Part shown: positions 2,739 to 38,295 of the stretch, in pieces
Position numbering within the stretch: the stretch's first letter is position 1
Layout of the letters: every line of letters begins with the position of its first letter
DNA from: Anaerolineae bacterium
GTDB lineage: Bacteria > Chloroflexota > Anaerolineae > 4572-78 > J111
Direction: 5' to 3'
NCBI GenBank assembly: GCA_020433805.1
Contig: JAGRBZ010000007.1
Span: 249-64,248 of the forward strand
DNA length: 64,000 nt
Notes under the pieces: generated by a model
Seen by the model: only the letters and a program-made list of their open reading frames with translations
What the model was told of the DNA's origin: nothing
The model's database searches: none
Translations under genes and position numbers: made by a program

Positions 2739-2753
2739 TTAAAGCTATGTGAG

Positions 2754-2826
2754 CGGGAGCGACGGGACTTGAACCCGCGATCTCCGGCTTGACAGGCCGG
2801 CGTGTTGACCACTACACCACGCCCCC
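2754..2826 (-). tRNA. tRNA-Asp (anticodon GTC)
   Basis: Reverse complement GGGGGCGTGGTGTAGTGGTCAACACGCCGGCCTGTCAAGCCGGAGATCGCGGGTTCAAGTCCCGTCGCTCCCG folds as a 73-nt cloverleaf. Anticodon loop is CTGTCAA and T-loop is TTCAAGT. CCA is not encoded. Confidence 0.93.
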
Positions 2827-2886
2827 AATTGAGTACCGATTAATATATTATAACGTCTATCAACCGATTTGGCAAAATTAACCAAA

Positions 2887-2957
2887 CTGGGGAACCAGGA
2901 TTCGAACCTGGATATACGGCTCCAAAGGCCGCTGTCCTACCATTAGACGATTCCCCA
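2887..2957 (-). tRNA. tRNA-Gln (anticodon TTG)
   Basis: Reverse complement TGGGGAATCGTCTAATGGTAGGACAGCGGCCTTTGGAGCCGTATATCCAGGTTCGAATCCTGGTTCCCCAG. It has the U1-A72 pair typical of bacterial tRNA-Gln, anticodon loop CTTTGGA and T-loop TTCGAAT. Confidence 0.9.
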
Positions 2958-2967
2958 CTATTTAAGG

Positions 2968-3040
2968 TGCCGAGGCCCAGACTTGAACTGGGGACCCTTT
3001 GATTTTCAGTCAAATGCTCTACCAACTGAGCTACCTCGGC
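2968..3040 (-). tRNA. tRNA-Phe (anticodon GAA)
   Basis: Reverse complement GCCGAGGTAGCTCAGTTGGTAGAGCATTTGACTGAAAATCAAAGGGTCCCCAGTTCAAGTCTGGGCCTCGGCA is a canonical 73-nt cloverleaf with anticodon loop CTGAAAA. Confidence 0.95.
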
Positions 3041-3189: not shown

Positions 3190-4278
3190 TTACTCTTCCA
3201 AACTGTCATCCGGATTTTTAGCACTATAGGCTCTCTTACGTTCAGGATCTTCGCTGTGGGCGTAAATACGCAGCGTCGTATTTGGAGACTTGTGCCCTGC
3301 CTGTTTGCTAACGTGATGAACGGCAATACCATTATTTAGACTGTGGGTAACATGGCTGTGCCGAATTTCGTGGAACTTGTATGGACCTATACAGGCTTCT
3401 TCTTGCCTAGCTTGCCATGCTTGATAGATACCATATTTTGTGAATGGCTTTTTGGACCAACCGTTTCCCTTTGTTCCCAAAAAAACCTGGCCGCCTATGT
3501 CTGGTCGACTTTTTAGCCACAATTCCAAGGAATGTTGGGCCTGCCGACCAAAATAGACGGTACGCTGCTCTTTTGTTTTGGAGGTTTTGGGTTGGATTAC
3601 CGCTTTACCTTCTTTCAGATAAAAGTCGCGCATCCGTAAACCGGCTACTTCGCCGATACGGCAGCCTGTGGCGTAGGTAAAGCGGAGGATAGCTAAATCA
3701 CGAACGGCCCGTTCATAAGGCAAACCGCGTTGTTGAGGTTCTAAATTGACACTAGCTTGTTCCAAATACTTGATCACTTTGACAAAATCTTGGGGGGCAA
3801 TAACACTGGCTTCAACTTTTGGAAGCTTGGGGCGTTCTATTTGCTCCATTGGGTTAAGAATAATGTAGCCAGCTTTTTGAGCCCACTTGAACCAAGCGTT
3901 AAGTCGGACCCAATATTCAGCCAGAGTAACTTTACTGTATTCTTCTTCATTCCGATAGATATCCAAGAATTGGTTCACTTGCTCTATTGTGGGCGGCCAT
4001 TGTGGGGCAAATTCGGCAAAACTAATTAGTAAAGAATGGTAGCAAGTAATTGTACTTTGACTGACCTCTTCACGCTTTTTGTGAGTCTTGAATTTGTCAA
4101 CTAAGACTACTGTAGGCATTGCTACCTGATTATTGAGAGGTTGATCGTGGATGGTACCCGTTTTGACGTCAACAACAACTTGCCTGCCTGGAAAGACCAG
4201 AGTCACCGTCTGATATACTAATGGCACCGCACAAAAATCAAACTGAACTTGTTCATGGCTTAAATGGGTAATATTCAT
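3190..4278 (-). CDS. tyrosine site-specific recombinase (phage-type integrase)
   Basis: Catalytic signature in order: ATGCRIGEV (Arg), HEIRHSHVTH (H-x-x-R), GHKSPNTTLRIYAH (Tyr). An N-terminal SAM-like core-binding region is present. AAGGAGA Shine-Dalgarno. It sits next to the tRNA cluster. Confidence 0.9.
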   Translation of the reverse strand: MNITHLSHEQVQFDFCAVPLVYQTVTLVFPGRQVVVDVKTGTIHDQPLNNQVAMPTVVLVDKFKTHKKREEVSQSTITCYHSLLISFAEFAPQWPPTIEQVNQFLDIYRNEEEYSKVTLAEYWVRLNAWFKWAQKAGYIILNPMEQIERPKLPKVEASVIAPQDFVKVIKYLEQASVNLEPQQRGLPYERAVRDLAILRFTYATGCRIGEVAGLRMRDFYLKEGKAVIQPKTSKTKEQRTVYFGRQAQHSLELWLKSRPDIGGQVFLGTKGNGWSKKPFTKYGIYQAWQARQEEACIGPYKFHEIRHSHVTHSLNNGIAVHHVSKQAGHKSPNTTLRIYAHSEDPERKRAYSAKNPDDSLEE

Positions 4279-4494
4279 TATTTTGTCTCCTTAATATGCA
4301 ATAACTTTTTCTGTTGAGGTAGAACTGGGGGATGGTGTATGTCATTGCATAAAAGTGAGCAATTCCTTTCGTTTGGTGCCAGTGATTGACGGTGTAACGA
4401 GAGGGCTTGAGTTGTCAAGTAGATCTTTGTCAAGATAGCAAACCCTTAGAGGTGGGCAGGGTACCGAAATACCCTGCCCTAAGCTGAATAGCGA

Positions 4495-4562
4495 CAAAAC
4501 AAAAAACGGCCACCCTCGCCATGCAGGCAGGAGTGACCGTCTGGTTATCTTTGAGCTACCAT
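4495..4562 (-). ncRNA. Candidate small RNA inside the repeat (consensus-like promoter plus intrinsic terminator on the minus strand)
   Basis: Minus strand has TTGACA (4592-4597), a 16-nt spacer and TATCAT (4570-4575). A 14-bp hairpin follows (plus-strand arms 4507-4520 and 4526-4539, one mismatch), then TTTTTTGTTTTG (4495-4506). The same elements are conserved in copy B. No expression evidence. Confidence 0.3.
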
Positions 4563-4579
4563 AAAAGCTATGATAGAAT
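4551..4579 (+). promoter_or_regulatory. Candidate sigma70-type promoter with extended -10, driving a structured leader of about 175 nt upstream of the STAS-GHKL gene
   Basis: TTGAGC (4551-4556), 17-nt spacer, TGA-TAGAAT (4574-4579). The identical hexamers occur in repeat copy B (38095-38100 and 38118-38123). Hairpins lie downstream at about 4593-4613 and 4621-4656. Confidence 0.35.
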
Positions 4580-4760
4580 AGACACCAGCCTTGTCAACTG
4601 CTAAACCCAGTTGGCGGGGTTAGCCGCCGGTGAGTGTTCGTAGCACTCGCCGGTGGCGACGTGGGGTTTGCCCTATTCAACTCTGACTATATGGTACTCC
4701 TTGAATGGAGATGGGTCAAGCCTTTTTCCTACATTGATTTAGACTCGCGAACCTGCTTTT

Positions 4761-5627
4761 ATGAACCCTCAAGTCATTTTTCTTCACCCTTTGAATAAAG
4801 AACTTACCGGTGTCGAAGACTTTTACCAGCAATTGATTCAATCGTCCGGAGCGGCAAGTTTTGCTCTTGATTTCGGTCGGGTAACATATATTCAACCTCA
4901 TTACCTTATGGCCCTAAATATTGGGGTTCGTTATCTATTTCACCACAGCAAAAGCCCGATAGGTTTAAGAAATCTGAATGACCAGGTATTGTCCTATCTA
5001 GAGCGCATGAATTTTTTTTCGATCAGCAGCCAATGGATTGAATTACAGGGGAAACTTCTTGAAGATACGTGGAACCGAAATCCCGACACAGATAACTTAC
5101 TGGAATTAACGACCATTGCCAGTGAGGATGACGTTGTACAAATTGTCGAAAGAACAAGACGTGTCTGCGCTCCCCTCAACCTCTCTAACCTGCCACAGAT
5201 ATTGCAAATCCTAAGCGAATTATGTAGCAATGCTCTATATCATAGTGGTGACAACAAAAGCTGCGCTTTAATCCAGCGATATTGGCAACAAAGAAAGCGC
5301 AAAAGACGCGTCGTATGTATTGCCATCGGAGACATGGGGTGTGGAATCCGCGGAAGTCTAGCCACGCGATTTGGCGAATTCGGCAATGAACAGAGCGATT
5401 ATTTATCAGCGGCGCTTGATGGTAAGACCTCACGAGAGACAGGACGAGGGGGCTTAGGCCTGTCTACCATCGAGACAACGGTTGATCAAGAAGGCGGATA
5501 TTTGTGGCTCAGGTCCGAAACTGCGGCGATTTTCAGCCGCGGAAAATATCAGCGCCGAATATCACCTTCACTTTCCGCTATTCCTGGCGCCCAAGTTGTC
5601 GTCGAGTTTAGCGCCCCAATGAAGTAA
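4761..5627 (+). CDS. STAS-like N-terminal domain fused to a GHKL (HATPase_c, RsbW/SpoIIAB-like) ATPase or kinase
   Basis: N-terminus reads FALDFGRVTYIQPHYLMALNIG...LRNLNDQVLSYLERMNFF (STAS-like). C-terminus has N-box ELCSNALYHS, G1 IGDMGCGIRGS and G2 GRGGLGLSTI. No obvious Shine-Dalgarno. Confidence 0.75.
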   Translation: MNPQVIFLHPLNKELTGVEDFYQQLIQSSGAASFALDFGRVTYIQPHYLMALNIGVRYLFHHSKSPIGLRNLNDQVLSYLERMNFFSISSQWIELQGKLLEDTWNRNPDTDNLLELTTIASEDDVVQIVERTRRVCAPLNLSNLPQILQILSELCSNALYHSGDNKSCALIQRYWQQRKRKRRVVCIAIGDMGCGIRGSLATRFGEFGNEQSDYLSAALDGKTSRETGRGGLGLSTIETTVDQEGGYLWLRSETAAIFSRGKYQRRISPSLSAIPGAQVVVEFSAPMK

Positions 5628-5661
5628 TTTGCTCTCCGATACAAAAATTTAGAAAGGCGAT

Positions 5662-5690
5662 TTGACAAATCCACTTTGATTGAGTAAATT
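5662..5690 (+). promoter_or_regulatory. Candidate internal promoter upstream of gene 2 of the cluster
   Basis: TTGACA (5662-5667), 17-nt spacer, TAAATT (5685-5690), inside the 130-nt AT-rich spacer between genes 1 and 2. Confidence 0.3.
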
Positions 5691-5757
5691 GTAGTTACGA
5701 TTTCACTAATTTTAAGTGAATTGACATATAGACACAGTGAATATTCAGGGAGAAAAA

Positions 5758-6348
5758 ATGATAGGATATAACATTAGTCAATTGCAAAATGAGATCGGTC
5801 TTACAAGTGGGCTATTCATTATGCGTTCCAAGGGGGAAAAGGCCTATCCTATTTTAGAAATGCAACTGCAGAGTATCCCTGAAAACGAAGCCCTGGTGGT
5901 GTGCTTTCCCGATGATCAATTAATGGATGTTTCTTTTGCCGATGAAACCATCATCCGGTTGGGCGAAGAAATCGCTGCCAACAAATTCGATCAACGACGT
6001 TTGCTACTGAAGGGATTAACGCCAGACAGCATTGTAAATATTGATCGAGCCATTCGCGGCCAGAAACTCAAACTAGCATTTATCCATATCACTTCCACGG
6101 GGAAGTGGGAGATTATCGGGCATCTTGAACCCAGCCTGCAAGAAGTGCTGGAAATGCTGGCCAACCGCGAGCGAATAACTGCTCCCGAATTGGTTCAAGC
6201 GTTAGATTTGGCTCTCAACACCGCTAATAATCGCCTCAAGAGACTTTTTAACCAGGGCCTCATTCAACGAGAATATGAGGTGTCGGACAAAGGGCTTCTG
6301 TACTATTACCGTTTTCCAATTCCTGTTTCAGATCGAGTTGACCTATGA
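5758..6348 (+). CDS. STAS-like (DUF4325-type) domain plus C-terminal winged helix-turn-helix protein
   Basis: LVVCFPDDQLMDVSFADETIIRLGEEI... has the pattern I recall for DUF4325 STAS-like domains. C-terminal ERITAPELVQALDLALNTANNRLKRLFNQGLIQREY looks like a MarR/wHTH. Start set at ATG 5758 after GGGAGAAAAA. Confidence 0.7.
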   Translation: MIGYNISQLQNEIGLTSGLFIMRSKGEKAYPILEMQLQSIPENEALVVCFPDDQLMDVSFADETIIRLGEEIAANKFDQRRLLLKGLTPDSIVNIDRAIRGQKLKLAFIHITSTGKWEIIGHLEPSLQEVLEMLANRERITAPELVQALDLALNTANNRLKRLFNQGLIQREYEVSDKGLLYYYRFPIPVSDRVDL

Positions 6349-7496
6349 CCAAAGATGCCGATACCCTCTTCAAATATCTTGTCGCTGGACTAATTGAAGC
6401 TGCTGAAACAGATTTTCGATATCCCTATCCGCCGCTCTGGCAGCAAGCTCTGAACATGCTGACTGCCTTCCAGATACGGCATCGGACACCTATACCCAAT
6501 ACACTTACCGGGACCTTGGCATTGTTAGAAGAGCCGATAGGCGAGTGGTGGCCTGGTGAGCTGCCTGAGGCCGTTACCGCTGAATTGGATCAGGATTTTA
6601 CTTTGCTTTTTGGGGGCCAGCCCGATGACTGGGCTTATGAGTTTTTAGAGTCAGAGGGTGTAGCTGGTATGGCAACACTAGCCCAATTTCAGGATGAGAT
6701 TACGCAAACAGGAATGAAGAGACTGCGTGATCTCTACCGGTCCAATGCTGACACTCTGGGTTACGTTTATGTTGTAACCCGTCGATTTATCGTCGAAAAT
6801 CCTGTTACAACCCTGGCAAACATTCAACAGACATTAGGCAATTTACCTCTAATTCGCCTCAAACAAGTGGCCGATTTTTATGAGGCTGAAGACGAATTTC
6901 TGAATGAAGCCTTACATCAAGGCCAGTTCTGGCGGTGTCCCCATTGTCAATCAATTCTGAATTGGGTCGATGGCACTCCCCGGTGTGAGCGTCACAGTGT
7001 GTGTGGCCGTCTTACAAGCGGCTATCGTGCCTGTAAGTTGTTAGCGCCAACAGGTAACTTACTACGATTAAAGCCGAGTATGGTGCGACGGGTGTGTGTC
7101 CCGGGTTTACCAGAAGTTGAGCTGTACGATTGGGCCAAAAATTTACAAACAGCGAATTCCGGACTGGTGAGTGTTTTCCTCTGGCCAGGGGTGGACCGGT
7201 ATGATCTCCAACTTTGTTTTGCCGACAACACCTCCTGGGCGATTGATGTGAAAGATTACGCCGATCCCATCAACCTGGGCCGGCGAGTCAGTAGCCAGTC
7301 GTTCTATAACCTAGGACAACTGCGCTGGGATCAAGGATATTACGTATTTCCTCAGTATCGCGTTGATTGGAATAAAAACTATGTTGAGCTGTTTAACCGG
7401 GCTGCCGAATTATCTATCCAAGTCAAGGGAGTCAGTGAAGTGGATTTCAAGAACCTGGTTATTCGCAAACTTGCTCAATTAACCGAGGACGCCTGA
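6345..7496 (+). CDS. Zn-ribbon plus PD-(D/E)xK restriction-endonuclease-fold protein (pPIWI-RE-associated REase-like)
   Basis: FWRCPHCQS...TPRCERHSVCGR (four-Cys ribbon). GVDRYDL...WAIDVKDY gives a D...D-x-K nuclease core. ATGA start/stop overlap with the upstream gene. Confidence 0.7.
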   Translation: MTKDADTLFKYLVAGLIEAAETDFRYPYPPLWQQALNMLTAFQIRHRTPIPNTLTGTLALLEEPIGEWWPGELPEAVTAELDQDFTLLFGGQPDDWAYEFLESEGVAGMATLAQFQDEITQTGMKRLRDLYRSNADTLGYVYVVTRRFIVENPVTTLANIQQTLGNLPLIRLKQVADFYEAEDEFLNEALHQGQFWRCPHCQSILNWVDGTPRCERHSVCGRLTSGYRACKLLAPTGNLLRLKPSMVRRVCVPGLPEVELYDWAKNLQTANSGLVSVFLWPGVDRYDLQLCFADNTSWAIDVKDYADPINLGRRVSSQSFYNLGQLRWDQGYYVFPQYRVDWNKNYVELFNRAAELSIQVKGVSEVDFKNLVIRKLAQLTEDA

Positions 7497-7499
7497 CCT

Positions 7500-10400
7500 A
7501 TGTTTGACCAACAATGGTATGACTCTCTGAAACGAAAAATTAGTGCTGCCGATATTGATGCTGAAATCGATAATCCCCGCCTGCTGCTGGAGGTTGAACT
7601 CGCATTTCGGTTACTGGAAATAATCGGCTTGACCGATGAACCGGCTGACGTTATCTGGTCGCTATTGAGCACCTTACCTGTGCCTCACCAGTCACTCACC
7701 AACCTGGACAATAACCAAAAACGGGCGCTGGCCAACGCTCGGGTCTTGCTCCATTTTGGACGCTTCGCCTGGCGCGATGCGCTCTACTGGTATAGCAAGC
7801 TACCCGCTCAATGGCGCGTTTACCAGGTTGACGCAGCTCAACCACTCAGCAAACCGGCACAACGCGAACCTAACGGCCCAGCCTATGTGACCAATCGAAT
7901 AGAAATTTACGACAACCTGTTGCATAAAAAACTCAGTTACAATAAACATTCATATGTCTTGGCAGGACCCGGGCGCATCACCTTCCGCACAACCCGCCAA
8001 CGGCCCCGAACAATCACCGTTGATCTGGATGCTGAAATGGTTTCCGCTGCGACAGCCGGGGATACCATCCCTCAAATTAACGGTGAGGAACGACCCCGCC
8101 AACCAATCATTGTGGATTGGGCCGGACTAAGAAACACGGCTGATATGCTGGATCAAAGAGCCGAGGAACGAAAGCCAGATCAAAACTCTGCTAAATGGAG
8201 CTGGCTGCTTGACCAGGTTATCCGGTTGCGATTTGTCGAAAAAGATGGTGGTTTGAGCCAGCTAAATGGCCATCCGCTCAAAATCGAGGGGATGCTGCAT
8301 CTGGCGGGTATGGTTGGCGCCGGTAAATCCACCTTAATGAAGCTGTTGGCCGCGCATGGAGTCCTTTCCGGCAACTGGCGCACCACTCTGGTGGTCGGCG
8401 ATACCATTACCGCCATCAATTTAGCCGATGAATTCAATCATCTTCTCTCTGACGGCAACTCACCGGTTGCGGTGCCCCTCTTGGGTCGCACTACCCGGCA
8501 TCACCATTTGCAGCGTCTTTACCAATCGAACAGCTTCCGCCCTGACCATTGGGGCTTACGCTGGTTGGATACTCGCTGCGCCATTCAGGGTTCTGCCGTT
8601 GAAAATGATCTAAAAGATGGGCCATTACAGCCCGGCGACGAACCATGTGAACGGTTGCAAGCCGGCCCACCTGATAAACCAGGCTCACTGCTACATTGTC
8701 CGCTCTTTGCCTTATGCCCTTCACGCCAACTTTACCACGATATTCCTGAGGCGATGATCTGGATTACAACGCCTGGGGCAATGGCAACATCCCATTTACC
8801 GGTAGCAACTGACCGGCGTCAGATGCTTTTAGGAGAGATGATTTACCATGAGGCAGATCTTGTAATTTTTGACGAGGTTGATACGGTTCAGCAATGGTTT
8901 GACAACGTCTATGCCTCCGACCAGTGGCTACTCGACGGGGGCCAGGGGCTGCTTGACGTGATGGATGTCAAAACCATCGAGGGTCTCAATCGCGGCTATC
9001 AAATCTCTCGACAGGGGCAGCGCTGGATTACGGCCGAACGGAGCGCCCGGCAGGTCGCCGAACAAGTATGTAGTATGCTGCGCGACCAGGCCGTGTTACG
9101 GGAGTGGCTTGGCGACCGCTACTTCACCGCGCACCGTTTATTTTTTGATTTAGCCTATCGTTTGCAGGTGAAGAGATCGGATGCTGATCAGGAAAAGATT
9201 AATCGGGTAGCTCTGGATTATTTTGACCAATTTCGCCGTGGATCTATTCTCCATCCGGGCGATAGCTATAACAAGGAACCGCTATCTCGACTTCTGGCCA
9301 TTGCCGACCAGGTCTTGGCCCGTGGCGGCAGTCTGGTTGATCGGGAGCGGGTTTTAGCTTTATGCAAGCAATGGTTAGAAGAATATGTACCTGATTCTAA
9401 GGCCATTGCCGGCCAACTGGCGCTTGAAAAAGCAGCCTGGCTTGAGAAGTGGCAGCATCGATCAGCGCGTCGAACCAGAAAACGGCCACCCCCTATGCCT
9501 GATGACTTGGAGACGTTGGCCGTCAGGCTTGAACTGGCGATTTCGGTCGCTATCCTTGAGGAAATGGTGCGAATCACCTTTGATGGTTGGCAACATGCAC
9601 CCTTGTTTATCACCAGTCAGATTGCCGATGATTATCGCTTGAGTCGCATTCCGCGTGACCTGGCCGGTGTCTTGCCCACCTCACCCACCGGTAGTCTCTT
9701 CGGATTTCAATACCTGGAAGAAGCTGGAGCCAGCCCGGATACAGCGGATGGTGAACAAATTCCGCTGAAAGTTCGCAGATTTTCTACGTTTCAATATCGC
9801 AACATCGGCCGCTGGTACGTTGAACACTTCCATGAATTACTCAGTGACCTTGGTTATCCCGGCCCTAATGTGTTGGCCATGTCCGGCACATCCTGGCTTC
9901 CTGACTCGGCAACATGGCATTTTTCGGTTGAACCCGCCGCTGTCCTGGAACCCACAGCGCACAGCCAGCAGGCCATCGAGACCAGCAAATTCTTCTTCAG
10001 GCCGGCTCGAGACAACGAGGGTAAACCCATCTTTGTGTCAGGCAGCGGGCGTTTGAGACAACAACTGGCTTTATTGGGCAAACAGTTGGCCGGCTATCCA
10101 GCCCCAAAGCAAGCTTTTTTGCTGCAAGAGTTGAAACGCCTCACCAATTTAGCCGAGCAGCAGCCGGAAGTGTGGGGCGACCGGGTTCGCCTACTCCTGT
10201 TCGTAAACTCATATGAGCAGGTACAGCCGGTGATGCAAGCCATCTTGAGCCAGCAGCCAGAGTGGAACCAGTTAACCTATGGACTGGTACGCAGTGCCGT
10301 CCCAACCCAGTCGAATGAATGGCAGTGGGCCAGGCTGGATGGTCAGACATTTATTAAGCATGATATAGAGCAATTCGGCCAGACTCAGGGTAACATTCTG

Positions 10401-11000
10401 GTTGCGCCGCTGCAGGCCATTGGTCGTGGTTACAATATTCTCAATGAAAACAATGTTGCTGCCTTTGGAACCGTATTATTTTTGACCCGACCAATGGCGC
10501 CTCCCTTTGATATGCAGGCTCGAGCCCAATGGCTAAACTGGTGTGTCCTGAACAAATGCGGCAGATCTGACGATGAACTTTGGCAGGGAAAAGTAGGCTT
10601 TCACGAAAAAGCTGAAGTCTTGCGTGACTGGGCGCATGATGAGTGGGATAGCTATGATGCCGCCCGCCGATATCAGGATTTGGATGATAAGCGCAAAAAC
10701 GATCTAGCCGCCTCGATGGCCGGTCTTATTATTCAAGCTTGTGGCCGGTTGTTACGGGGAGGTGTTCCGTTTCGGGCGTATTTCGTTGACGCGGCCTGGG
10801 CACCCCATACGGCCACAGGCAATAGGTCTGACACACTTGAAACCAGTCTACTCTTGAGGATGATTTACCTACTAAACTATTATTGTCAAAAGCCAGTCGG
10901 ACAAGCTTTATACGCACCCTTGGCCAGGTCTTTAAACCAAATAGAAGGGCTGGCCAAGCTTGAAACCATTAAAGATGAACCACTTTTAGTAATGGAGTAA
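7500..11000 (+). CDS. Large SF2 (DinG/XPD-like) helicase, pPIWI-RE-associated type
   Basis: Walker A AGMVGAGKST (nt 8304-8333). Walker B VIFDEVD (nt 8862-8882). Motif VI-like QACGRLLRGG lies near the C-terminus. Four Cys (aa 360, 383, 400, 406) lie between motifs I and II. Starts 4 nt after the previous stop. Confidence 0.8.
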   Translation: MFDQQWYDSLKRKISAADIDAEIDNPRLLLEVELAFRLLEIIGLTDEPADVIWSLLSTLPVPHQSLTNLDNNQKRALANARVLLHFGRFAWRDALYWYSKLPAQWRVYQVDAAQPLSKPAQREPNGPAYVTNRIEIYDNLLHKKLSYNKHSYVLAGPGRITFRTTRQRPRTITVDLDAEMVSAATAGDTIPQINGEERPRQPIIVDWAGLRNTADMLDQRAEERKPDQNSAKWSWLLDQVIRLRFVEKDGGLSQLNGHPLKIEGMLHLAGMVGAGKSTLMKLLAAHGVLSGNWRTTLVVGDTITAINLADEFNHLLSDGNSPVAVPLLGRTTRHHHLQRLYQSNSFRPDHWGLRWLDTRCAIQGSAVENDLKDGPLQPGDEPCERLQAGPPDKPGSLLHCPLFALCPSRQLYHDIPEAMIWITTPGAMATSHLPVATDRRQMLLGEMIYHEADLVIFDEVDTVQQWFDNVYASDQWLLDGGQGLLDVMDVKTIEGLNRGYQISRQGQRWITAERSARQVAEQVCSMLRDQAVLREWLGDRYFTAHRLFFDLAYRLQVKRSDADQEKINRVALDYFDQFRRGSILHPGDSYNKEPLSRLLAIADQVLARGGSLVDRERVLALCKQWLEEYVPDSKAIAGQLALEKAAWLEKWQHRSARRTRKRPPPMPDDLETLAVRLELAISVAILEEMVRITFDGWQHAPLFITSQIADDYRLSRIPRDLAGVLPTSPTGSLFGFQYLEEAGASPDTADGEQIPLKVRRFSTFQYRNIGRWYVEHFHELLSDLGYPGPNVLAMSGTSWLPDSATWHFSVEPAAVLEPTAHSQQAIETSKFFFRPARDNEGKPIFVSGSGRLRQQLALLGKQLAGYPAPKQAFLLQELKRLTNLAEQQPEVWGDRVRLLLFVNSYEQVQPVMQAILSQQPEWNQLTYGLVRSAVPTQSNEWQWARLDGQTFIKHDIEQFGQTQGNILVAPLQAIGRGYNILNENNVAAFGTVLFLTRPMAPPFDMQARAQWLNWCVLNKCGRSDDELWQGKVGFHEKAEVLRDWAHDEWDSYDAARRYQDLDDKRKNDLAASMAGLIIQACGRLLRGGVPFRAYFVDAAWAPHTATGNRSDTLETSLLLRMIYLLNYYCQKPVGQALYAPLARSLNQIEGLAKLETIKDEPLLVME

Positions 11001-11006
11001 GATAGC

Positions 11007-13613
11007 ATGAATAAAACAGAGTCGCCGCATCACATTCAGGAATTCCGATTCCGCCTAAATCTGGAAGCATTGGCCAATGAACAGATTGCTTATCTGCGCT
11101 TTCCGTGGGAGAGAGCAATCAATGAATTTACTGACTTCATTAAACAGAAATTGGGCAGAGAGTTAGTTTTCAAAGAGCTGCCGCCATTTCAACCGCTCAA
11201 TGCAGCACTGGTCGCCTTATCAACGACATTGGTTCACGGATTTGAAGAGTATAAATTTGATGAGCAAGAAATCAGATATCTGGTGCTGCCGGCCGACGCG
11301 CCACGACCTCAACTAAGCCAGCTCATAACCGTCGTCCAATTATGGATCGCAAATTGGATTGACAATAAATTCAAGAATGAGATAACTTTGCCCGAAGTGC
11401 AGCAGGCCCGCCTGGAACTGCTAGAGAAGCTCGACCATCCCGAATATGAATGGGAAGAGGCAACGGTTGACTCTCTCTGGCCCCACAGCCCCTTTATTTA
11501 TCAGGCCATTCCCAGCCTATTGGCCAAGTATCTGGTCAAACAGAAGCTGACAATTTTCGACCTCCATCCAGAATGGCGCTTGAGTAAAGGAACGGGAAAG
11601 GGGCATTTATCTCTGGTCAGCCAGCCGCTCCCTTCGGAAGCGGGTAATGACAGATTTGCTTATGTTATTGAATTCATAGTTCAAACCGTGCCGGGCGATG
11701 CCGAGCCTTATGTGGACCTTCATGTTCATTGTCGCCGCTATATGAGCCGTCCGGTTGAGTGGCTGAATCGCAATCGCAAGTCAACAGTTATGGTTGGGCT
11801 TAAGGCACCGCTCATTGATGGTTGGCCTTTCGACACAACCCTTATCCCCTTACAGGTAGACAGACGCGGTAAAAAATTCTTTTGGCGCGATCAAACCCGT
11901 CACCTGCTTGAACAGGTCAATATCCGGGCGTTAATTGAGCCTGATAAATTGGCTGCTAATCCATCAGAACACTGGTTTGCCAATGACCGGGATAAATACT
12001 TCTGGATATACGCCCAGGGTATGCAGCCCGACCATGAATTAGGAACCGGCTTCAGCCCCGGCGAAATGTATGAGGTATTTCAACAGGTAGCCCAATTGAC
12101 AGACTCTATCCTCACGCCAATTGCACCACTTGAACGAGACATGGAAACCTTCGGACGCAGACGCACCGCGGCAGAACTGACGGTTTGGGAACTGATGGAC
12201 GAAGGCAACCGGCAGGTTCGAATATTCGGCCAGTCGCGAAAAACTGAAACGCTTGATGACGCAGCCAAGCAGCAGTTAAAAATCGAGTCCGGGCGGAGAG
12301 CCGTTGATGATAAACCTCTCTATTTGCTGCTGCTGTATCGCGCTGAAAATAGCCGCCTCGAATTACGGAAGCATGCGCAAATGTGTTTGCCTGCACCTGA
12401 TCTAGATACTCATATCATCGAATTACAGCTTCAGGATGAGTTGACAGCTCCTTTTCCGGAGGATGCTTCTACCATAGAGTTCCAGAGGCGTCGGCGTCTC
12501 TGGAAGAAGTTCTTGCAGGAGATAGAATTTCCTAATAACGCCAAAATAATGGCCTTAATTGAAGTCCCGCGTGACAACTTGTCAGATGACGATGAAAAAG
12601 TAAAAACCGTAATCCGTGAGGTGTGTATGCATCTTGATATCGGTTCGCAGTTATTTGTGCAGCCCAAGGCTGAATTCAAGTCAGGTGATACAAGCCGCGC
12701 CAAAAACGCCGTGACAGATTTGCTGGTGCGACAAACCGGCACAATTTTCGGCGACATTCGCGATATCTACCGGGCAGCTGGCCTGCCCGGCGAGGTGGCT
12801 GACCACCTGACGGTCATCGGTCTATACCGCCGCCGGACAAGCGGATCGAAAGCCATTGATTTTCCATTGGCGGTACGGGTTCTCCCCATTGGCAAGGTCG
12901 AGATGTGCTGGCCCGGCCAGATATGGTTGGCCTATCATCAGGCTACCCTGAGTTTGGGCCAGTTCTTCAAAAGCAATCGAGGGAAAAAAAATCACCGGCA
13001 AATTCTCAATCTGAATGGCGATAAAATCTCATCGTTCATTGAGCAGGTTTGCCTGATGACCAACAGCCCAACCCTGGTTCTGGTTGAAGCCCACGATTTT
13101 CGCGGTGTGTGGCCGACACTGCAAAATCCGAAGTTGCTGCGTAATGAGCTTCGCCTGACCACCGGGGATATTTTGACGCCCGCCTCAGTGCCAGACCTAC
13201 GGCTTATTCGCCTACGCACCAGTGAGAATCACGAAACACCTCAATACGTGCGGGTGTTTCCAGGCAATGACGCCGGTCAATATGAGGCTGGACGCAGCGC
13301 GGAAAGTCTACACTTGGCCCGCACGTCTGGCCCTTTCCCGATGTTTCACAGCATTGGCCAGATGCCCCAAACCACCACCTATCAAAAAGCGACTGACCCC
13401 AAGACCCAGAGTGGTGGGGATCGCTCATACAAACACCAACGTATTATGGAAATCATCCCCATTTTTATGCAACCCGGCGACCAGGAACAGGCTTGGGCGC
13501 GGCTGGTAGACTACTTGCGCTATACCCCGGCATGGCACGGCGGCGACCCCACGCTCCCTTTACCCAATCACCTCGCGGTTAACGCTCTGCAGGATGTGCT
13601 GTGTTTACTATAA
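11007..13613 (+). CDS. pPIWI-RE-like prokaryotic Argonaute/PIWI-family protein (RNaseH-fold C-terminal domain)
   Basis: Position is downstream of the REase plus DinG-like helicase. C-terminal strings PTLVLVEAHDFRGVWPTLQN, LIRLRTSENHETPQYVRV, KHQRIMEIIPIF and DPTLPLPNHLA match my memory of the pPIWI_RE RNaseH domain. Not verified by any search. Confidence 0.6.
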   Translation: MNKTESPHHIQEFRFRLNLEALANEQIAYLRFPWERAINEFTDFIKQKLGRELVFKELPPFQPLNAALVALSTTLVHGFEEYKFDEQEIRYLVLPADAPRPQLSQLITVVQLWIANWIDNKFKNEITLPEVQQARLELLEKLDHPEYEWEEATVDSLWPHSPFIYQAIPSLLAKYLVKQKLTIFDLHPEWRLSKGTGKGHLSLVSQPLPSEAGNDRFAYVIEFIVQTVPGDAEPYVDLHVHCRRYMSRPVEWLNRNRKSTVMVGLKAPLIDGWPFDTTLIPLQVDRRGKKFFWRDQTRHLLEQVNIRALIEPDKLAANPSEHWFANDRDKYFWIYAQGMQPDHELGTGFSPGEMYEVFQQVAQLTDSILTPIAPLERDMETFGRRRTAAELTVWELMDEGNRQVRIFGQSRKTETLDDAAKQQLKIESGRRAVDDKPLYLLLLYRAENSRLELRKHAQMCLPAPDLDTHIIELQLQDELTAPFPEDASTIEFQRRRRLWKKFLQEIEFPNNAKIMALIEVPRDNLSDDDEKVKTVIREVCMHLDIGSQLFVQPKAEFKSGDTSRAKNAVTDLLVRQTGTIFGDIRDIYRAAGLPGEVADHLTVIGLYRRRTSGSKAIDFPLAVRVLPIGKVEMCWPGQIWLAYHQATLSLGQFFKSNRGKKNHRQILNLNGDKISSFIEQVCLMTNSPTLVLVEAHDFRGVWPTLQNPKLLRNELRLTTGDILTPASVPDLRLIRLRTSENHETPQYVRVFPGNDAGQYEAGRSAESLHLARTSGPFPMFHSIGQMPQTTTYQKATDPKTQSGGDRSYKHQRIMEIIPIFMQPGDQEQAWARLVDYLRYTPAWHGGDPTLPLPNHLAVNALQDVLCLL

Positions 13614-13640
13614 TCATCAAGCTTAATCCAGGAGACCGAG

Positions 13641-16600
13641 ATGTCTATCCATCTCTACCTTGCCCCAGCCGGGGCCGGTAAAACCGATTATCTAATTGAG
13701 CAAGCTCGCCAGGTCGTTGGGGATTTGTCCACAACCGTGCGCGTTTGTGTCCCCAGCGGACTACAAGCCCAAGTCTGGAAACGCCGATTAGCGGCAGCGG
13801 GTGGCGCGTTGGGGGTGCGGGTGCAGCTCTTTTATGAACTCTATATGGAATGCCTGGATGCCGTGGGCCAGCCATACATCGAACTGAGTGAGCCGGTCCA
13901 ATACCGGCTGCTCCAGGCCACTGTTGATTCCCTGCCCTTAACCTACTACCGTTCCCTCAAACGTCGTCCCGGCTTTATCTCGCTCCTGCAAAATCTCACT
14001 GGAGAATTGAAGGCCGGGCGAATTGATCCTGATTTATTGTCAGCGGCCATCACCCAATTGGGCAACGAAAATCGCCTGGCCGAACTTGCCCAAATTTACG
14101 CCGCTTATCAGACCCAATTGCAGGCCCGTCACTGGACCGACCGGCCCGGCCTGGGCTGGCTGGCCGTAGAAGCGCTGGCTAACCGGCCAACTCTGCCCAC
14201 TTTTACCGACTCCGTGCTGTGGGTGGACGGGTTCGACAACTTCACACCCATGCAGATTGATTTTTTGAAAGAAATCGCTCAGCAGACCCAGCAATTGGTC
14301 ATTACCCTGACCGGCGCTGGCAGACCTACCCGGCCGCTGGTGCATCGTCGTTTCGAGCAAACGCGAGCGCAGCTGGAGGCCGCCCTGCACGTTTCAGCGG
14401 AGCCGCTACCGGTCAGACCACGCCGTTGCCACCCGGTGCTAGCCCACCTGGAAGCCCAGCTGTTCAAGTCGTCTCAGGACTCAGTGCTCGGCGTCGAGGT
14501 CGTGAGCCTGATTGAAGCACCCGACCGGGTCGGCGAGGTGCGCAGCGCGTTACGCTGGCTCAAAAAACGGCTCATTATGGACGGCTTGTCTCCCGGTCAG
14601 GTCGCCCTACTGGCCCGCTCAATTACCCCTTATCGCCCCTTCATCAGCCAAGTCGGGGTCGAGTTTGGTTTGCCCCTGCACCTGATGGAGGGTCAGCCGT
14701 TGCGCAGTAATCCGGCCGTAGCGGCCTTGCTCAATCTGTTGCGGCTGATGCTGCCAGCTTCGGCGACCGATCCCAGGCCGGCGCTGCCTTACCCGCTGGT
14801 ACTTGAAGCCTGGCGGTCACCCTATTTCGATTGGGCAGCCCGGCCAACCCTCGAAGCCGAAGAACCGATTGGAATTGAAGCCGGTGACGCTGCGTTACTG
14901 GCCAACGTTGCCCGCCAGGGGCAGGTGTTGGCGGGCCAGCGCCAATGGCTGGAGGCCTTTGAGCCGTTGACCCGGCGAGACCAGGCTGCCCAAGAAGTCG
15001 GGTTGCCTGACGCCGCCACCGCCCACAAACTTCAGACCATATTTGAGCGATTTATCCGGCGCCTGACGCCGCCGGAGGCAGCAGTTAGCCTGCGCGACTT
15101 TGCCGGGTGGCTGGAAGACCTAATCGGGGCCGACCCGCAGTTTGCGCTACGTTTTTCACAACCCGACCCGGCTGCCCCCATCTCGCTCAAGGTGATTGAC
15201 CGTATCCGGGCCGAGCTAACGACGGCCGCCCGCGACCTGGCCGCGCTCCAGCAACTCAAAGAGATTTTGCGCGGTTTGGTCTGGGCCGAAACTGCCATTA
15301 CCCCAAACCAATCAATGACCTTTAGCCAGTTTTTTGACGAGCTGGCCGGCGCTATTGAAGCCAGCAGCTACTTGCTGCCGTATGACCCGGCTGAGGAAGC
15401 CATCCTGGTCGCCGATGTGGTTCAGGCCCGCGGGGTGCCGTTTCAGGCCGTGGCCGTACTGGGCCTGGCTGAAGGCGAGTTCCCTACCCGCTTAAGCGAA
15501 GACCCGCTGCTGCGGGACAGCGACCGCTTCCGTTTGAACCAACTGGGTATTCCGCTTCGACCTTCCACCGAAAGCGCCGAGATCGAGTTCTTTTACGAAA
15601 CTATTGCCCGACCCTGGGATCAACTCCTGCTGACCCGCCCCCGCCTGGCCGACAATGGCGCGCCCTGGCAGGCCTCCCCATATTGGGAAGAGGTCATCAA
15701 ATTGGTCAAAGTCACCCCCTTGCCCCTGACTCAGGAGCGTTTGCCCCGGCCTGACGAAGTCGCCTCCTGGCCCGAGCTGATGGAGAGTTTGGGACGCTAC
15801 GCCGGTTACGCAGTAGTCAAGCAGTGGATCGCCGAGACCAACCCCGTACGGCAGACGGCTGTGGCTGCAGCTGCCCAAACAATGGCGCAGCGATTGGCCC
15901 AGGCAACGGGCAGTCTGTTTGACGGCAATCTGCACGCCGCCACTGCTGACCTGGCCAATGAGTATGGTCCCACCAGAATCTGGAGCGCCAGCCGTCTGGA
16001 AGATTATCGCACTTGCCCCTTTCTCTTTTTTGTCAGACACCTGCTGGGCGTTGAACCTAGAGGCGAACCGGAAGAAGGGCTGGACGCCCGCCAATTGGGC
16101 CGAATTTACCACGATACTTTTGAAAAGCTTTACCAATCCGTCCTTGACCCGACTGACCTGGAGGAATTGCTGGAAGCGTTGCCGGAAATCGGCGGCGCGA
16201 TTCTGGATAAGGCTCCGGAAAAGGAAGGTTTCCGGGCAACGGCCTGGTGGTCGCAAACCCGGCAGACTATTTTGGACAATGTGCAGCGCTCATTGATTAA
16301 ATTGGCCGAACTGGCCGGCGATTTTGAACCCCTGGCCTATGAGCAGCGTTTTTTTGAACCGGACATGCCGTTGACCCTTCGCGACGGCGATGATTACTTC
16401 CAGCTGCATGGAGTGATTGACCGGATCGACCAAGGGCCAGATAAAACCCTCCGCCTGATCGACTACAAAACCGGCGGTTCTTATGGCTATGATGAGGCTG
16501 CCATTCGAGAAGGGAAAAAGCTGCAACTGCCCCTTTATGCGCTGGCCGCGCAGGAAGCGTTGGAGCTAGGCCAGGCGGTGGATGGCTTTTACTGGCACAT

Positions 16601-16823
16601 CCACCAAGCTGAAGCCAGCCGTTTTAGACTGGCGACGTTCCGAGGCGAGTTTGCCAGCGGGCCAGAGGCGGCGATGCAGGTTGCGGTTGAGAAGGCCTGG
16701 GAAGCGGTGCGGGGGGCTCGAACTGGCCACTTTACACCCCAGCCGCCGGCTGGTGGCTGCCCCACTTACTGCCCGGCCGCGAGCTTTTGCTGGCACTATC
16801 ACCCGGCCTGGGGAGGACGCTGA
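13641..16823 (+). CDS. addB: AddB/RexB-like helicase-nuclease subunit (PD-(D/E)xK nuclease with Fe-S Cys cluster)
   Basis: N-terminal Walker A APAGAGKT. C-terminal SASRLEDYRTCPFLFF, DRID...LIDYKTG nuclease core and GGCPTYCPAASFCWH (1 + 3 Cys layout as in AddB). AGGAGA Shine-Dalgarno. Confidence 0.85.
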   Translation: MSIHLYLAPAGAGKTDYLIEQARQVVGDLSTTVRVCVPSGLQAQVWKRRLAAAGGALGVRVQLFYELYMECLDAVGQPYIELSEPVQYRLLQATVDSLPLTYYRSLKRRPGFISLLQNLTGELKAGRIDPDLLSAAITQLGNENRLAELAQIYAAYQTQLQARHWTDRPGLGWLAVEALANRPTLPTFTDSVLWVDGFDNFTPMQIDFLKEIAQQTQQLVITLTGAGRPTRPLVHRRFEQTRAQLEAALHVSAEPLPVRPRRCHPVLAHLEAQLFKSSQDSVLGVEVVSLIEAPDRVGEVRSALRWLKKRLIMDGLSPGQVALLARSITPYRPFISQVGVEFGLPLHLMEGQPLRSNPAVAALLNLLRLMLPASATDPRPALPYPLVLEAWRSPYFDWAARPTLEAEEPIGIEAGDAALLANVARQGQVLAGQRQWLEAFEPLTRRDQAAQEVGLPDAATAHKLQTIFERFIRRLTPPEAAVSLRDFAGWLEDLIGADPQFALRFSQPDPAAPISLKVIDRIRAELTTAARDLAALQQLKEILRGLVWAETAITPNQSMTFSQFFDELAGAIEASSYLLPYDPAEEAILVADVVQARGVPFQAVAVLGLAEGEFPTRLSEDPLLRDSDRFRLNQLGIPLRPSTESAEIEFFYETIARPWDQLLLTRPRLADNGAPWQASPYWEEVIKLVKVTPLPLTQERLPRPDEVASWPELMESLGRYAGYAVVKQWIAETNPVRQTAVAAAAQTMAQRLAQATGSLFDGNLHAATADLANEYGPTRIWSASRLEDYRTCPFLFFVRHLLGVEPRGEPEEGLDARQLGRIYHDTFEKLYQSVLDPTDLEELLEALPEIGGAILDKAPEKEGFRATAWWSQTRQTILDNVQRSLIKLAELAGDFEPLAYEQRFFEPDMPLTLRDGDDYFQLHGVIDRIDQGPDKTLRLIDYKTGGSYGYDEAAIREGKKLQLPLYALAAQEALELGQAVDGFYWHIHQAEASRFRLATFRGEFASGPEAAMQVAVEKAWEAVRGARTGHFTPQPPAGGCPTYCPAASFCWHYHPAWGGR

Positions 16824-19800: not shown

Positions 19801-20164
19801 GCAGCAAATGTTAGGGCGGTTCCAAAGCCACGAATTGTACCACAGGATGAACAGCGCCGAGCGCTGTCTGCACGAGGTTCCTTATAGTCTGCCCGTGGAC
19901 GGCGCCGTGGAGTCAGGCAGAATGGATGCCTTGTTTCTTCAGGACGATACGTGGCACGTGGTTGAATTCAAAACTGATGCTGTGCGTGACGAGTCTGAAC
20001 GAGAGAGGGTGCTGGCCCAAACCGATTATCTGGCCCAGGTTCAGCGTTACCGGCAGGTAATTGAGGTCATGCTGGGCCAGAAGCCGAAAATCATTTTCTG
20101 CTGGCTCAACTATGCCGGTCGGGTTGAGGTGCGGACTGATTTACGTAGTAAAACAGAAGCTTGA
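16823..20164 (+). CDS. addA: AddA/UvrD-like helicase-nuclease subunit
   Basis: TAGAGTGKT, ITFTQKAAREMRNR, ILVDEFQDTN, FIVGDAKQSIYRFRGA, TIHAAKGLEFPVV, LLYVAVTRAEEKV. C-terminal RecB-type nuclease GRMDALF...HVVEFKTD. Start set at ATG 16823 (TGATG overlap with the addB stop, GGGAGGA Shine-Dalgarno), not the ORF-track start 16787. Confidence 0.9.
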   Translation: MVFHPIVQQLSPSEEQTPAILARNQEVVVTAGAGTGKTRTLVARYLALLSEGTGLRSIVAITFTQKAAREMRNRLRDAIREYLDRTDLSEDERGLWQAHYSTLDAARVSTIHSLCAEILRAHPAEAGLDPRFEVLEEGLTNVLREQVIAESLTWAANQPEVVSLFGLLGEAVLRRTLAVLLNRRLETSAIFATMPDNLIEHWHQHLSQTQAQVLAVLTSSTAWQANLETLRQNEPTNSADKLEAHRQTALAVAANPTGLLAHLDTIKLNVGSQKNWPGGAEQVAEVKAALKTIRELWKKEKQFLLLALNELDETAADALPRLRRLFQYGHDRFIALKEAQNSLDFDDLEDKTLRLLRDQETVRQRWQRDIQAILVDEFQDTNDRQRDLVALLNGDQGKLFIVGDAKQSIYRFRGADVSVFRAERDEIVARGGQHVPLETSYRAHSDLIEGMNELLAPVLGRAADPTRPWLEPFSALEPHRQVAGQGFTAPHIELHLTVGSKSDGALDHAASVLVNRLIELVEAEEIYTGVGDKARRLDYGHVAILCRSSTSFAAYEDALEAAGIPFLTVAGRGFYERPEIRDLLNALQAIADPTDDLALVGLLRSPAFSLSDEGLYRLHQARTQTSSSFWETLTSSALHLSETEKLRLDRTRPIIDRLHRQVGRMPVADILKQFLDETDYRAALIQIGQQRSARNVSKLLADANTAELVSVNEFLAYINNLRDSGSREGEARTPAEGAVQLLTIHAAKGLEFPVVALGDVSYKPPTWQEILIDPELSLLIPHRDEEKNIAASYLLGNRTDSEQEEAEFKRLLYVAVTRAEEKVLLSGAISLNKDNKLKRASGWLALLAETDNLGLGDLTIEHNETGDKAIELTLSVGQSPVRCTNYEPGYSFTQSGRIATVEPEILAPVPPPLLDPVTVSKAPLPAERLPRIARVVSSAVRRRAPAWVVGDLTHKALATWRFGEDGFEVWLAAQARNYGLTDNEQVTDAVQKAQQMLGRFQSHELYHRMNSAERCLHEVPYSLPVDGAVESGRMDALFLQDDTWHVVEFKTDAVRDESERERVLAQTDYLAQVQRYRQVIEVMLGQKPKIIFCWLNYAGRVEVRTDLRSKTEA

Positions 20165-37992: not shown

Positions 37993-38295
37993 GAGGGCAG
38001 GTGGGGCTTTGACGCACCCCACCCTGAGCTGAATAGCGACAAAACAAAAACGGCCACCCTCGCCATGCAGGCAGGAGTGACCGTCTGGTTATCTTTGAGC
38101 TACTATAGAAGCTATGATAGAATAGACACCAGCCCTGTCAACTGCTAAACCCAGTTGGCGGGGTTAGCCGCCGGTGAGTGTTCGTAGCACTTGCCGGTGG
38201 CGAATTGGGATTTGTCCTATTCAACTCTTACTATATGGTACCCCTTGATTGGAGATGGGTCAAGCCTTTTTTATATTGTTTCAGTCTCGTGAATT
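37993..38295. repeat. Direct repeat copy B (partner of 4452-4752)
   Basis: Same order of elements as copy A: an edge hairpin with different sequence, A-run, long hairpin, TTGAGC-17-TAGAAT, two leader hairpins, ...ggagatgggtcaagcctttttt. Confidence 0.9.

Follow-up and report, generated by a model that had tools for sequence, protein, structure and literature searches.

A CapK/CapS-type kinase and repressor pair as the probable controller of a pPIWI-RE defense operon in an Anaerolineae bacterium

A 64,000-nucleotide stretch of DNA (referred to as the window), part of a 65,786-bp contig from a metagenome-assembled genome of an Anaerolineae bacterium (Chloroflexota), carries seven closely packed genes in a single orientation (positions 4761-20164; Table 1). 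They begin after a 482-bp gap that follows a tyrosine integrase gene. Gene 1 encodes a protein with STAS and GHKL domains and gene 2 a protein with a STAS domain and a winged helix-turn-helix (wHTH). Genes 3-5 bring together a restriction endonuclease (REase), a DinG-type helicase and a pPIWI-RE protein, as identified by Pfam and PADLOC, which is the composition of the three-gene pPIWI-RE system reportedly described by Burroughs et al. in 2013. Genes 6 and 7 encode AddB- and AddA-like helicase-nucleases. The first two genes probably constitute a controller of the CapK/CapS type for the adjacent pPIWI-RE defense operon.

The open reading frame (ORF) of gene 1 is present as reported in a first-pass annotation of the sequence, which had read it as a STAS-like N-terminal domain joined to a GHKL module with N, G1 and G2 boxes, and this architecture was borne out. 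Residues 146-254 score above the gathering threshold of Pfam HATPase_c (E = 6.5e-9). The AlphaFold 2 (AF2) model of the protein has a predicted local distance difference test score (pLDDT) of 92.9; in Foldseek comparisons its C-terminal half matches GHKL folds and its N-terminal ~100 residues match SpoIIAA and other STAS structures (1til_B, 1tid_B and 2ka5; prob 0.99-1.0). The motif VLSYLERMNFF, by which the STAS-like domain had originally been recognized, corresponds to residues 75-85. The N box (E153, N157), the G1 box (D191-x-G193-x-G195) and the G2 box (G230-G231-x-G233) show little or no variation among 48 aligned relatives, and N157, within the motif SELCSNALYHS, is kept in all 48. Position Y43 is aromatic (F, Y or W) in 47 of the 48 relatives, and W104 is nearly invariant in the clade. 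The STAS domain begins at residue 4 and the protein has 288 amino acids (aa), compared with 368 aa for CapK, so that the N-terminal helix-turn-helix (HTH) of CapK is absent. All but one of the 97 relatives listed are 159-305 aa long, the remaining one having 317 aa. In one further locus (L007, 6519-9914), the gene 1 homolog forms the end of a 1131-aa ORF, which represents either an N-terminal fusion of ~840 aa or a run-through in ORF calling.

For gene 2, which had been described as a second STAS-like domain joined to a wHTH, the C-terminal domain is recognized by Pfam (HTH_24, 5.6e-6; MarR, 5e-5) and by Foldseek, with superpositions of ~65 residues at 1.3-2.4 Å on winged helices of ArsR, MarR and TFE proteins. 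Its recognition helix is nearly invariant (N154, A156, R159, K161, R162). The AF2 model has a pLDDT of 92.5. When the whole model is submitted to Foldseek, the wHTH dominates, and no STAS or CapS entries appear among the top 50 matches in a structure library that extends to April 2026; a profile search of the PDB succeeded where this whole-model comparison did not. The assignment of the N-terminal alpha/beta domain as STAS is made because the protein is homologous over its full length to the CapS crystal structures 9Z72 and 9Z71. This domain contains the motif D57-x-S59-F60-x-D62-E63, invariant in an alignment of 50 sequences, and Ser59 is present in 50 of 50 sequences and in every locus examined. 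The STAS part of the earlier description therefore stands. The DUF4325 label that went with it was dropped: the window protein gives no match at E<=1 to this Pfam family, and only four of 50 relatives match it, with a best E of 0.0016. An exhaustive profile search placed 301 representative clusters in the gene 2 family at E<=1e-10; among the best 150 of these 301 clusters, most members are 180-210 aa long and match over nearly their full length.

The start of gene 2 had originally been placed at GTG 5737. The true start is most likely ATG 5758, because the alignments of relatives, which are 186-205 aa long, begin there, because the ribosome-binding site AGGGAG precedes this codon and because GTG 5737 falls within the half-site GTGAA of the putative operator described below. 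In public records, the gene 2 product is MCB0190669.1, "winged helix-turn-helix transcriptional regulator," with a start eight codons late (188 aa), and the gene 1 product is MCB0190668.1, "sensor histidine kinase." Several relatives carry the JGI label "anti-sigma regulatory factor," and none is publicly labelled CapK or CapS. PADLOC returned weak and uninformative matches for genes 1 and 2 (DrmA N-terminus, 9e-5; PDC-M13B, 0.04; CARF/Csa3 wHTH); PADLOC-DB 2.0 is older than the description of CapKS.

Table 1. Positions of genes, domains, key codons and regulatory features in the window.
Feature	Position	Strand	Basis or remark
tRNA-Asp/Gln/Phe cluster	2753-3040		
Tyrosine integrase	3190-4278	-	Pfam scan
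Direct repeat, copy 1	4471-4751		280 bp, 92% identity to copy 2
Candidate sigma-70-type promoter of gene 1	4551-4579	+	TTGAGC-17-TAGAAT, TG before -10; pattern scan 9/12
Gene 1, CapK/VapK-like kinase, 288 aa	4761-5627	+	Pfam HATPase_c, alignment, AF2, Foldseek, hhalign
Gene 1 STAS domain, residues ~1-118	4761-5114	+	
Gene 1 Y43 codon	4887-4889	+	
Gene 1 GHKL domain, residues ~120-288	5118-5624	+	
Gene 1 E153 codon	5217-5219	+	N box
Gene 1 N157 codon	5229-5231	+	N box
Gene 1 D191 codon	5331-5333	+	G1 box
Gene 1 G230-G233 codons	5448-5459	+	G2 box
Promoter of gene 2 and operon	5662-5690	+	-35 TTGACA 5662-5667, 17-bp spacer, -10 TAAATT 5685-5690; pattern scan 10/12
Putative operator O1	5702-5720		exact palindrome TTCAC-N9-GTGAA; 11 bp past -10
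Putative operator O2	5723-5741		21 bp after O1; right half GTGAA 5737-5741 exact, left half degenerate (GACAT vs tCAC consensus)
Ribosome-binding site AGGGAG	5747-5752	+	5 nucleotides ahead of ATG 5758
Gene 2, CapS-like repressor, 196 aa	5758-6348	+	50-sequence alignment, profile matches to CapS structures, hhalign, AF2, Foldseek
Gene 2 STAS domain, residues ~1-122	5758-6123	+	
Gene 2 Ser59 codon	5932-5934	+	
Gene 2 wHTH, residues ~125-186	6130-6315	+	
ATGA overlap of gene 2 stop and gene 3 start	6345-6348	+	
Gene 3, pPIWI_RE_Y + REase	6345-7496	+	Pfam PF18154, PF18156; PADLOC PprRE
Gene 4, pPIWI_RE_Z + DinG-type helicase	7500-11000	+	PADLOC PprDinG 7.6e-126; Pfam PF18155
Gene 5, pPIWI-RE protein (X, MID, RNaseH/PIWI domains)	11007-13613	+	Pfam PF13111, PF18157, PF13032; PADLOC PprPIWI 8.4e-79
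Gene 6, AddB-like helicase-nuclease	13641-16823	+	Pfam, NCBIfam
Gene 7, AddA-like helicase-nuclease	16787-20164	+	Pfam, NCBIfam
1038-aa protein, DUF4297/LmuA-like N-terminus + nSTAND3 NTPase	20426-23542		262 bp past gene 7
Direct repeat, copy 2	38016-38293		
480-aa ORF, unannotated	38701-40143		

CapK and CapS have been described as a regulatory pair encoded upstream of CBASS, Bub, Bil, MBL, Thoeris IV and CarolAnn operons (Chambers, Rani, Min, Villa and Corbett, EMBO J 2026, PMC13373217; preprint February 2026; PDB 9Z71, 9Z72 and 9Z73). CapK has the architecture HTH-STAS-GHKL and CapS the architecture STAS-wHTH, with a length of ~180-200 aa. CapS represses transcription as a dimer bound to TTAA-based palindromes, the main CapS dimer occupying a wide palindrome. 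CapK is switched on by single-stranded DNA (ssDNA) of ~20 nucleotides and phosphorylates CapS at S54 in E. roggenkampii, upon which the CapS dimer separates into monomers; the phosphomimetic S54E variant does not bind DNA and causes constitutive expression. The acceptor serine is absolutely conserved (S54 in E. roggenkampii, S58 in V. cholerae). In a reporter assay, CapK could do without its N-terminal HTH, and deletion of the host recB lowered CapKS-dependent induction. [quoted passage not shown] The ssDNA signal was established in vitro for CapK and was inferred for VapK from an AlphaFold 3 (AF3) model together with the F54A mutant (Chambers et al., 2026).

By sequence comparison, both window proteins are remote homologs of these regulators, gene 1 of CapK and VapK and gene 2 of CapS. 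The profile built from 50 gene 2 sequences matches the CapS structures 9Z72 (E = 7.9e-12) and 9Z71 (E = 5.5e-10) across both domains, and comparison of the gene 2 family with E. roggenkampii CapS by hhalign gives a probability of 96.9% (E = 1.7e-10). No match to VapS (9Z7O) was obtained with this profile at E<=1. The CapS sequence was taken from the source data of the published work and the VapK sequence from its supplement 63. Ser59 aligns with the residue preceding Phe in the motifs DSSF of E. roggenkampii CapS and DAAF of the V. cholerae S58A mutant, and it is predicted to be the phospho-acceptor equivalent to S54 and S58, the offset between chain and native numbering being inferred. The search for a conserved phosphorylatable residue in this domain, suggested when the locus was first annotated, has thus led to Ser59. 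The gene 1 family aligns with CapK residues 103-363 over 227 columns (hhalign 96.3%, E = 1.8e-9), and SELCSNALYHS, containing N157, is aligned with CapK SELIGNVRDHS, whose Asn is the only one near the catalytic N218. The alignment with VapK (hhalign 95.1%, E = 3.4e-8) extends over 232 columns and the whole STAS-GHKL length, and places Y43 opposite VapK F54.

The intergenic region between genes 1 and 2 shows a layout that is common to the related loci. It opens with TTGAC(A) as the -35 element, often in overlap with the gene 1 stop codon; a 17-bp spacer and a TATAAT-like -10 element come next and, ~10 bp further on, the palindrome TTCAC-N9-GTGAA. In most kinase-linked loci, a second site, (T)CAC-N9-GTGAA, follows 3-4 bp after the first and lies ahead of the gene 2 start and its ribosome-binding site. 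The window has this arrangement as well, with the promoter that the first-pass annotation had proposed for gene 2 and the genes after it, which is recovered as TTGACA-17-TAAATT (10 of 12 positions) and has equivalents ahead of the operator in most kinase-linked loci. In the region 4200-6500, seven promoter-like sites were counted against 3.9 +/- 1.9 in shuffled sequences. The palindrome TTCAC-N9-GTGAA occurs exactly once in the 64-kb window. Of the 53 surveyed loci that could be assessed, 42 have an exact copy next to the start of gene 2, and the 749 kb of locus sequence contain 47 exact matches, compared with ~0.7 expected at 4^-10 per position. The centers of the half-sites are 14 bp apart, which is the same distance as in the "wide palindrome" TTAA-N10-TTAA published for CapS.

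In a divergent clade (L055-L059), both half-sites are altered symmetrically to TTCAA-N9-TTGAA and the geometry is unchanged, as expected of a site bound by a dimer; the cargo of these loci, where visible, is pPIWI-RE. Repressors, and not activators, typically have their sites where the palindrome is located, directly after the -10 element and over the likely start site. All five members of the clade have a Thr in the recognition helix (ASTRLKRL). A clean operator specificity code based on this residue was ruled out, as L046 and L021 also have the Thr but carry CAC-type sites.

For gene 1, a promoter inside the repeated sequence upstream had likewise been proposed. A pattern match is indeed located there, in copy 1 of the 280-bp repeat, and its hexamers are kept in the second copy; being a pattern match only, it is regarded as a candidate. 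No operator was found upstream of gene 1, and no half-sites occur near the candidate promoter. Between gene 2 and the cargo, no intergenic promoter was found in the window, and the other pPIWI-RE loci likewise have no gap at this point.

To place the pair in a wider context, 67 loci were collected in two scans, in which the gene 2 alignment served as the query for genome contigs and that of gene 1 as the query for metagenome contigs; ORFs were then called and compared by BLASTP. Both genes are present in 44 of the 67 loci, and in 43 of these 44 they are adjacent in the order gene 1, gene 2. The cargo was annotated with Pfam, PADLOC and NCBIfam and counted for the 48 loci with at least 1.5 kb of downstream sequence. 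CBASS type II (cyclase, E1-E2 and SAVED nuclease) was found in eight loci, an unannotated pair of ~1250 and ~760 aa in eight, 6A-MBL with E2-E1-JAB in seven, SWIM/DUF5691/MoxR/DUF5682 in seven, CBASS IIB(E2) with patatin in four and an OLD/AriA-like ATPase in two, and a further four loci remained unclassified. A pPIWI-RE system forms the cargo in five loci (L009, L055, L057, L058 and L066), in addition to the window. Linkage of the pair to pPIWI-RE, as seen in the initial annotation, recurs in these loci but is not specific, the pair also standing upstream of CBASS, 6A-MBL and OLD-like cargo, among others. The first cargo gene varies completely among the loci and may encode a cyclase, an MBL, a REase, a helicase-like protein or an ATPase. 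CBASS II, CBASS IIB(E2) and MBL are also among the published CapKS cargos.

The unannotated pair is one of the two commonest cargos of the clade. It consists of a protein of ~1250 aa with a weak ResIII hint and a protein of ~760 aa, and is found in L001, L002, L003, L007, L008, L025, L026, L030, L031 and L048 (for example, L008 10587-14285 and 14275-16569). Neither protein yields a match over the curated cut-offs in Pfam, PADLOC or NCBIfam, and the pair is a candidate for an uncharacterized defense system.

Considered together, the domain architectures, the catalytic and acceptor residues, the homology, the conserved gene order ahead of variable defense cargo and the conserved putative operator at a repressor-type position are all observed here and form the basis for a CapK/CapS-type controller. 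The suggestion of a phosphorylation-controlled transcriptional gate or infection sensor, made before any database search, is supported, its mechanism having been worked out experimentally for the homologous CapK/CapS (Chambers et al., 2026). Kinase activity, the ssDNA signal, dimer dissociation and repression itself would be shared with these homologs. In the resting state, as homology and the location of the operators suggest, a dimer of the gene 2 protein would sit as a repressor on O1 and O2, just past the -10 element of its own promoter, and would hold expression of gene 2 itself and of the co-transcribed pPIWI-RE genes low. Given the ATGA overlap and the tight packing, a single transcript would run from gene 2 onward and would probably include the AddAB-like genes. 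The gene 1 product, an HTH-less STAS-GHKL serine kinase, might be supplied from the separate upstream promoter. Upon infection or DNA damage, ssDNA would, as deduced from CapK and VapK, bind the groove between the STAS and GHKL domains with participation of Y43, and the activated kinase would phosphorylate Ser59 of the repressor. Phosphorylation would then break the repressor dimer and clear the operators, and capS and the pPIWI-RE operon would be induced.

The likeness to CapK/CapS comprises a STAS-GHKL kinase gene directly upstream of a STAS-wHTH gene at the head of variable immune operons, a conserved catalytic Asn and STAS acceptor Ser, palindromic, here putative, operators at the capS promoter with a half-site spacing of 14 bp, a partly shared cargo (CBASS II, CBASS IIB(E2) and MBL) and detectable sequence homology for both proteins. 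Several observations weigh against this assignment. The window kinase lacks the N-terminal HTH of the published CapK, and identity to the characterized proteins is low (~19-25% over aligned columns, ~23-25% in the comparison with CapK/CapS). No equivalent of CapK W68, an ssDNA contact, was identified in the alignment, which begins at CapK residue 103, and the loop opposite CapK K237 and K239 has a basic sequence in the window protein (QQRKRKRR) but is variable in the family. The operator half-sites are TTCAC/GTGAA here, compared with TTAA in the published systems. In the E. roggenkampii locus, a second promoter is situated downstream of capS and ahead of the cargo; here, capS overlaps the first cargo gene and the layout has one promoter. 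The promoter scan presumes sigma-70-type promoters although the host belongs to the Chloroflexota. Hosts and cargo also set this clade apart from the published collection: the loci come from Chloroflexota and cyanobacteria, and pPIWI-RE occurs as cargo, often accompanied by AddAB-like genes. A text search of the published 443-locus capKS table (Dataset EV2) for PIWI, Nostoc, Anabaena, Calothrix, Anaerolineae and Chloroflexi returned no entry.

A further point against the assignment concerns the kinase. Approximately seven gene 2 relatives located ahead of SWIM/DUF5691/AAA_5 (MoxR)/DUF5682 genes have no adjacent kinase gene. In six of the seven loci of this type (L012, L013, L014, L017, L020 and L024), no kinase is encoded in the fetched DNA, and in L019 it lies two genes upstream. 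The gene 2 relative of these loci is usually accompanied by TTCAC-N9-GTGAA. The repressor can therefore exist without a kinase encoded in cis, which suggests that the kinase acts in trans or that control is independent of it.

Some of these differences would also be compatible with the same kinase-repressor wiring responding to another input, for instance to a nucleotide, to a protein of the phage or to something produced by the AddAB-like or pPIWI-RE machinery, or with gene 2 acting as an activator. The fact that no W68 equivalent was identified, the unconserved basic loop, the presence of W104, which is nearly invariant in the clade but unmatched in CapK, and hosts and cargo unlike those of the published set point in this direction. 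However, an aromatic residue matching VapK F54 is kept in 47 of 48 relatives, ssDNA has been assigned as the signal to both CapK (in vitro) and VapK (AF3 model and F54A), and an operator past the -10 element and over the likely start site speaks against an activator. We consider this alternative rather unlikely.

It is more doubtful still that the pair operates as a post-translational gate resembling VapKSC, in which the gene 2 protein would inhibit the first cargo protein, the gene 3 REase, by binding, and the VapK-like kinase would free the REase by phosphorylation, with transcriptional control being secondary or absent. Gene 1 has the HTH-less STAS-GHKL architecture of VapK and aligns with it over the full length, including Y43 opposite F54. 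The ATGA overlap of genes 2 and 3 is of a kind frequent in toxin-antitoxin pairs, and the logic of kinase and STAS protein is known to be employed post-translationally as well (Chambers et al., 2026). Against this, gene 2 retains a full wHTH with a nearly invariant recognition helix, whereas VapS has only a short C-terminal helix, and it has a conserved operator at its own promoter. Its profile matches CapS and, at E<=1, not VapS, no PIN/VapC toxin gene was found by Pfam among genes 3-8, and the complete exchange of the first cargo gene among loci argues against a specific inhibitory protein contact.

Classical partner switching, with gene 1 as an anti-sigma factor of the RsbW/SpoIIAB type and gene 2 as its antagonist, is highly improbable: the folds resemble SpoIIAB and SpoIIAA (Foldseek), as in the SpoIIAB-SpoIIAA and RsbW-RsbV modules, the target of a GHKL serine kinase would be a conserved Ser where the second STAS helix begins, a weak NCBIfam spIIAB match (9e-4) lies far under the cutoff and the JGI label points the same way, but the nine large annotated ORFs of 3190-23542 include no sigma factor and no PP2C phosphatase (smaller ORFs were not scanned), the kinase bears its own STAS domain, the substrate is itself a DNA-binding transcription factor, the pair moves with changing defense cargo on mobile islands, and the characterized homologs work directly on promoters (Chambers et al., 2026). 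The phospho-switch analogy drawn initially thus reaches as far as the kinase and its STAS partner, no sigma factor or phosphatase having been found among these large ORFs. CapW/BrxR (wHTH-WYL) and CapH with CapP are comparable to the CapK/CapS-type controller as modular repressors that respond to DNA damage or ssDNA and head many defense systems, but the proteins are unrelated, and release is brought about by a ligand (CapW) or by proteolysis (CapP), not by phosphorylation.

Genes 6 and 7 are closely packed behind gene 5, and predicted internal promoters and terminators between 6300 and 20500 do not exceed the number expected from shuffled sequences. They probably belong to the same transcription unit as genes 2-5. 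Their GC content is 56-62%, compared with 44-53% for genes 1-5. AddAB-like genes accompany the pair and pPIWI-RE in further loci, where they are located upstream (L056 2-2002, L057 2-1984 and L058 3607-9950) and not downstream as in the window (13641-20164). L056 and L057 are near-duplicates. The order in L058 is AddB, AddA, capK, capS, REase, DinG and PIWI, with AddA overlapping capK. This linkage is seen in three of five independent assessable pPIWI-RE loci, versus none of ~45 loci with other cargo (Fisher p 5e-4). Among the papers searched, including the 2013 pPIWI-RE paper, none was found to link pPIWI-RE to STAS-GHKL genes or to AddAB.

As deletion of recB lowers CapKS induction (Chambers et al., 2026), an end-resecting enzyme encoded in the operon could supply the ssDNA signal. 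In this scenario, which is speculative and which we regard as unlikely on present grounds, the AddAB-like helicase-nuclease would itself belong to the sensing loop: by resecting linear DNA that is foreign or broken, it would generate ssDNA that activates the kinase, leading to self-amplifying de-repression. Guides or substrates for pPIWI-RE and DinG might come from this ssDNA as well. If true, this would be a defense system with its own generator of the CapK signal, independent of the host RecBCD.

The surroundings of the operon contain further signs of mobility. The tRNA cluster and the minus-strand integrase gene adjoin the defense cluster, an arrangement that fits an integrated mobile island. 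The two copies of the direct repeat flank ~33.5 kb that include the gene 1-gene 2 pair and the genes for the pPIWI-RE, AddAB-like and DUF4297/nSTAND3 proteins. Copy 1 is situated in the gap that separates gene 1 from the integrase gene, and copy 2 upstream of an unannotated ORF. The repeat contains two strong hairpins in addition to the candidate gene 1 promoter, matches no Rfam family and may represent an island boundary or an att-like duplication. The DUF4297/nSTAND3 protein downstream of gene 7 is encoded at ~41% GC and is probably a separate defense gene of the same island.

The mechanism itself has already been published, and the pair does not represent a new type of system. What is new is the combination of an HTH-less, VapK-type kinase with a CapS-type repressor, the single-promoter layout, the distinct operator, the occurrence in Chloroflexota and cyanobacterial hosts and the pPIWI-RE cargo with AddAB-like genes. 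The public names "sensor histidine kinase" and "winged helix-turn-helix transcriptional regulator" can be corrected, and TTCAC-N9-GTGAA together with the gene pair provides a marker for regulated defense cassettes, including those with the cargo of ~1250 and ~760 aa. The published CapKS set is mostly from Proteobacteria; the present clade adds hosts among the Chloroflexota and cyanobacteria, as well as a kinase form without the HTH that forms a bridge between CapK and VapK. For pPIWI-RE, whose function is poorly understood and for which the literature that was checked mentions no dedicated regulator, the pair offers a first regulatory handle. A CapKS-type switch predicts that pPIWI-RE stays silent until DNA damage or ssDNA arises, and induction may be needed to obtain a phenotype in heterologous hosts.

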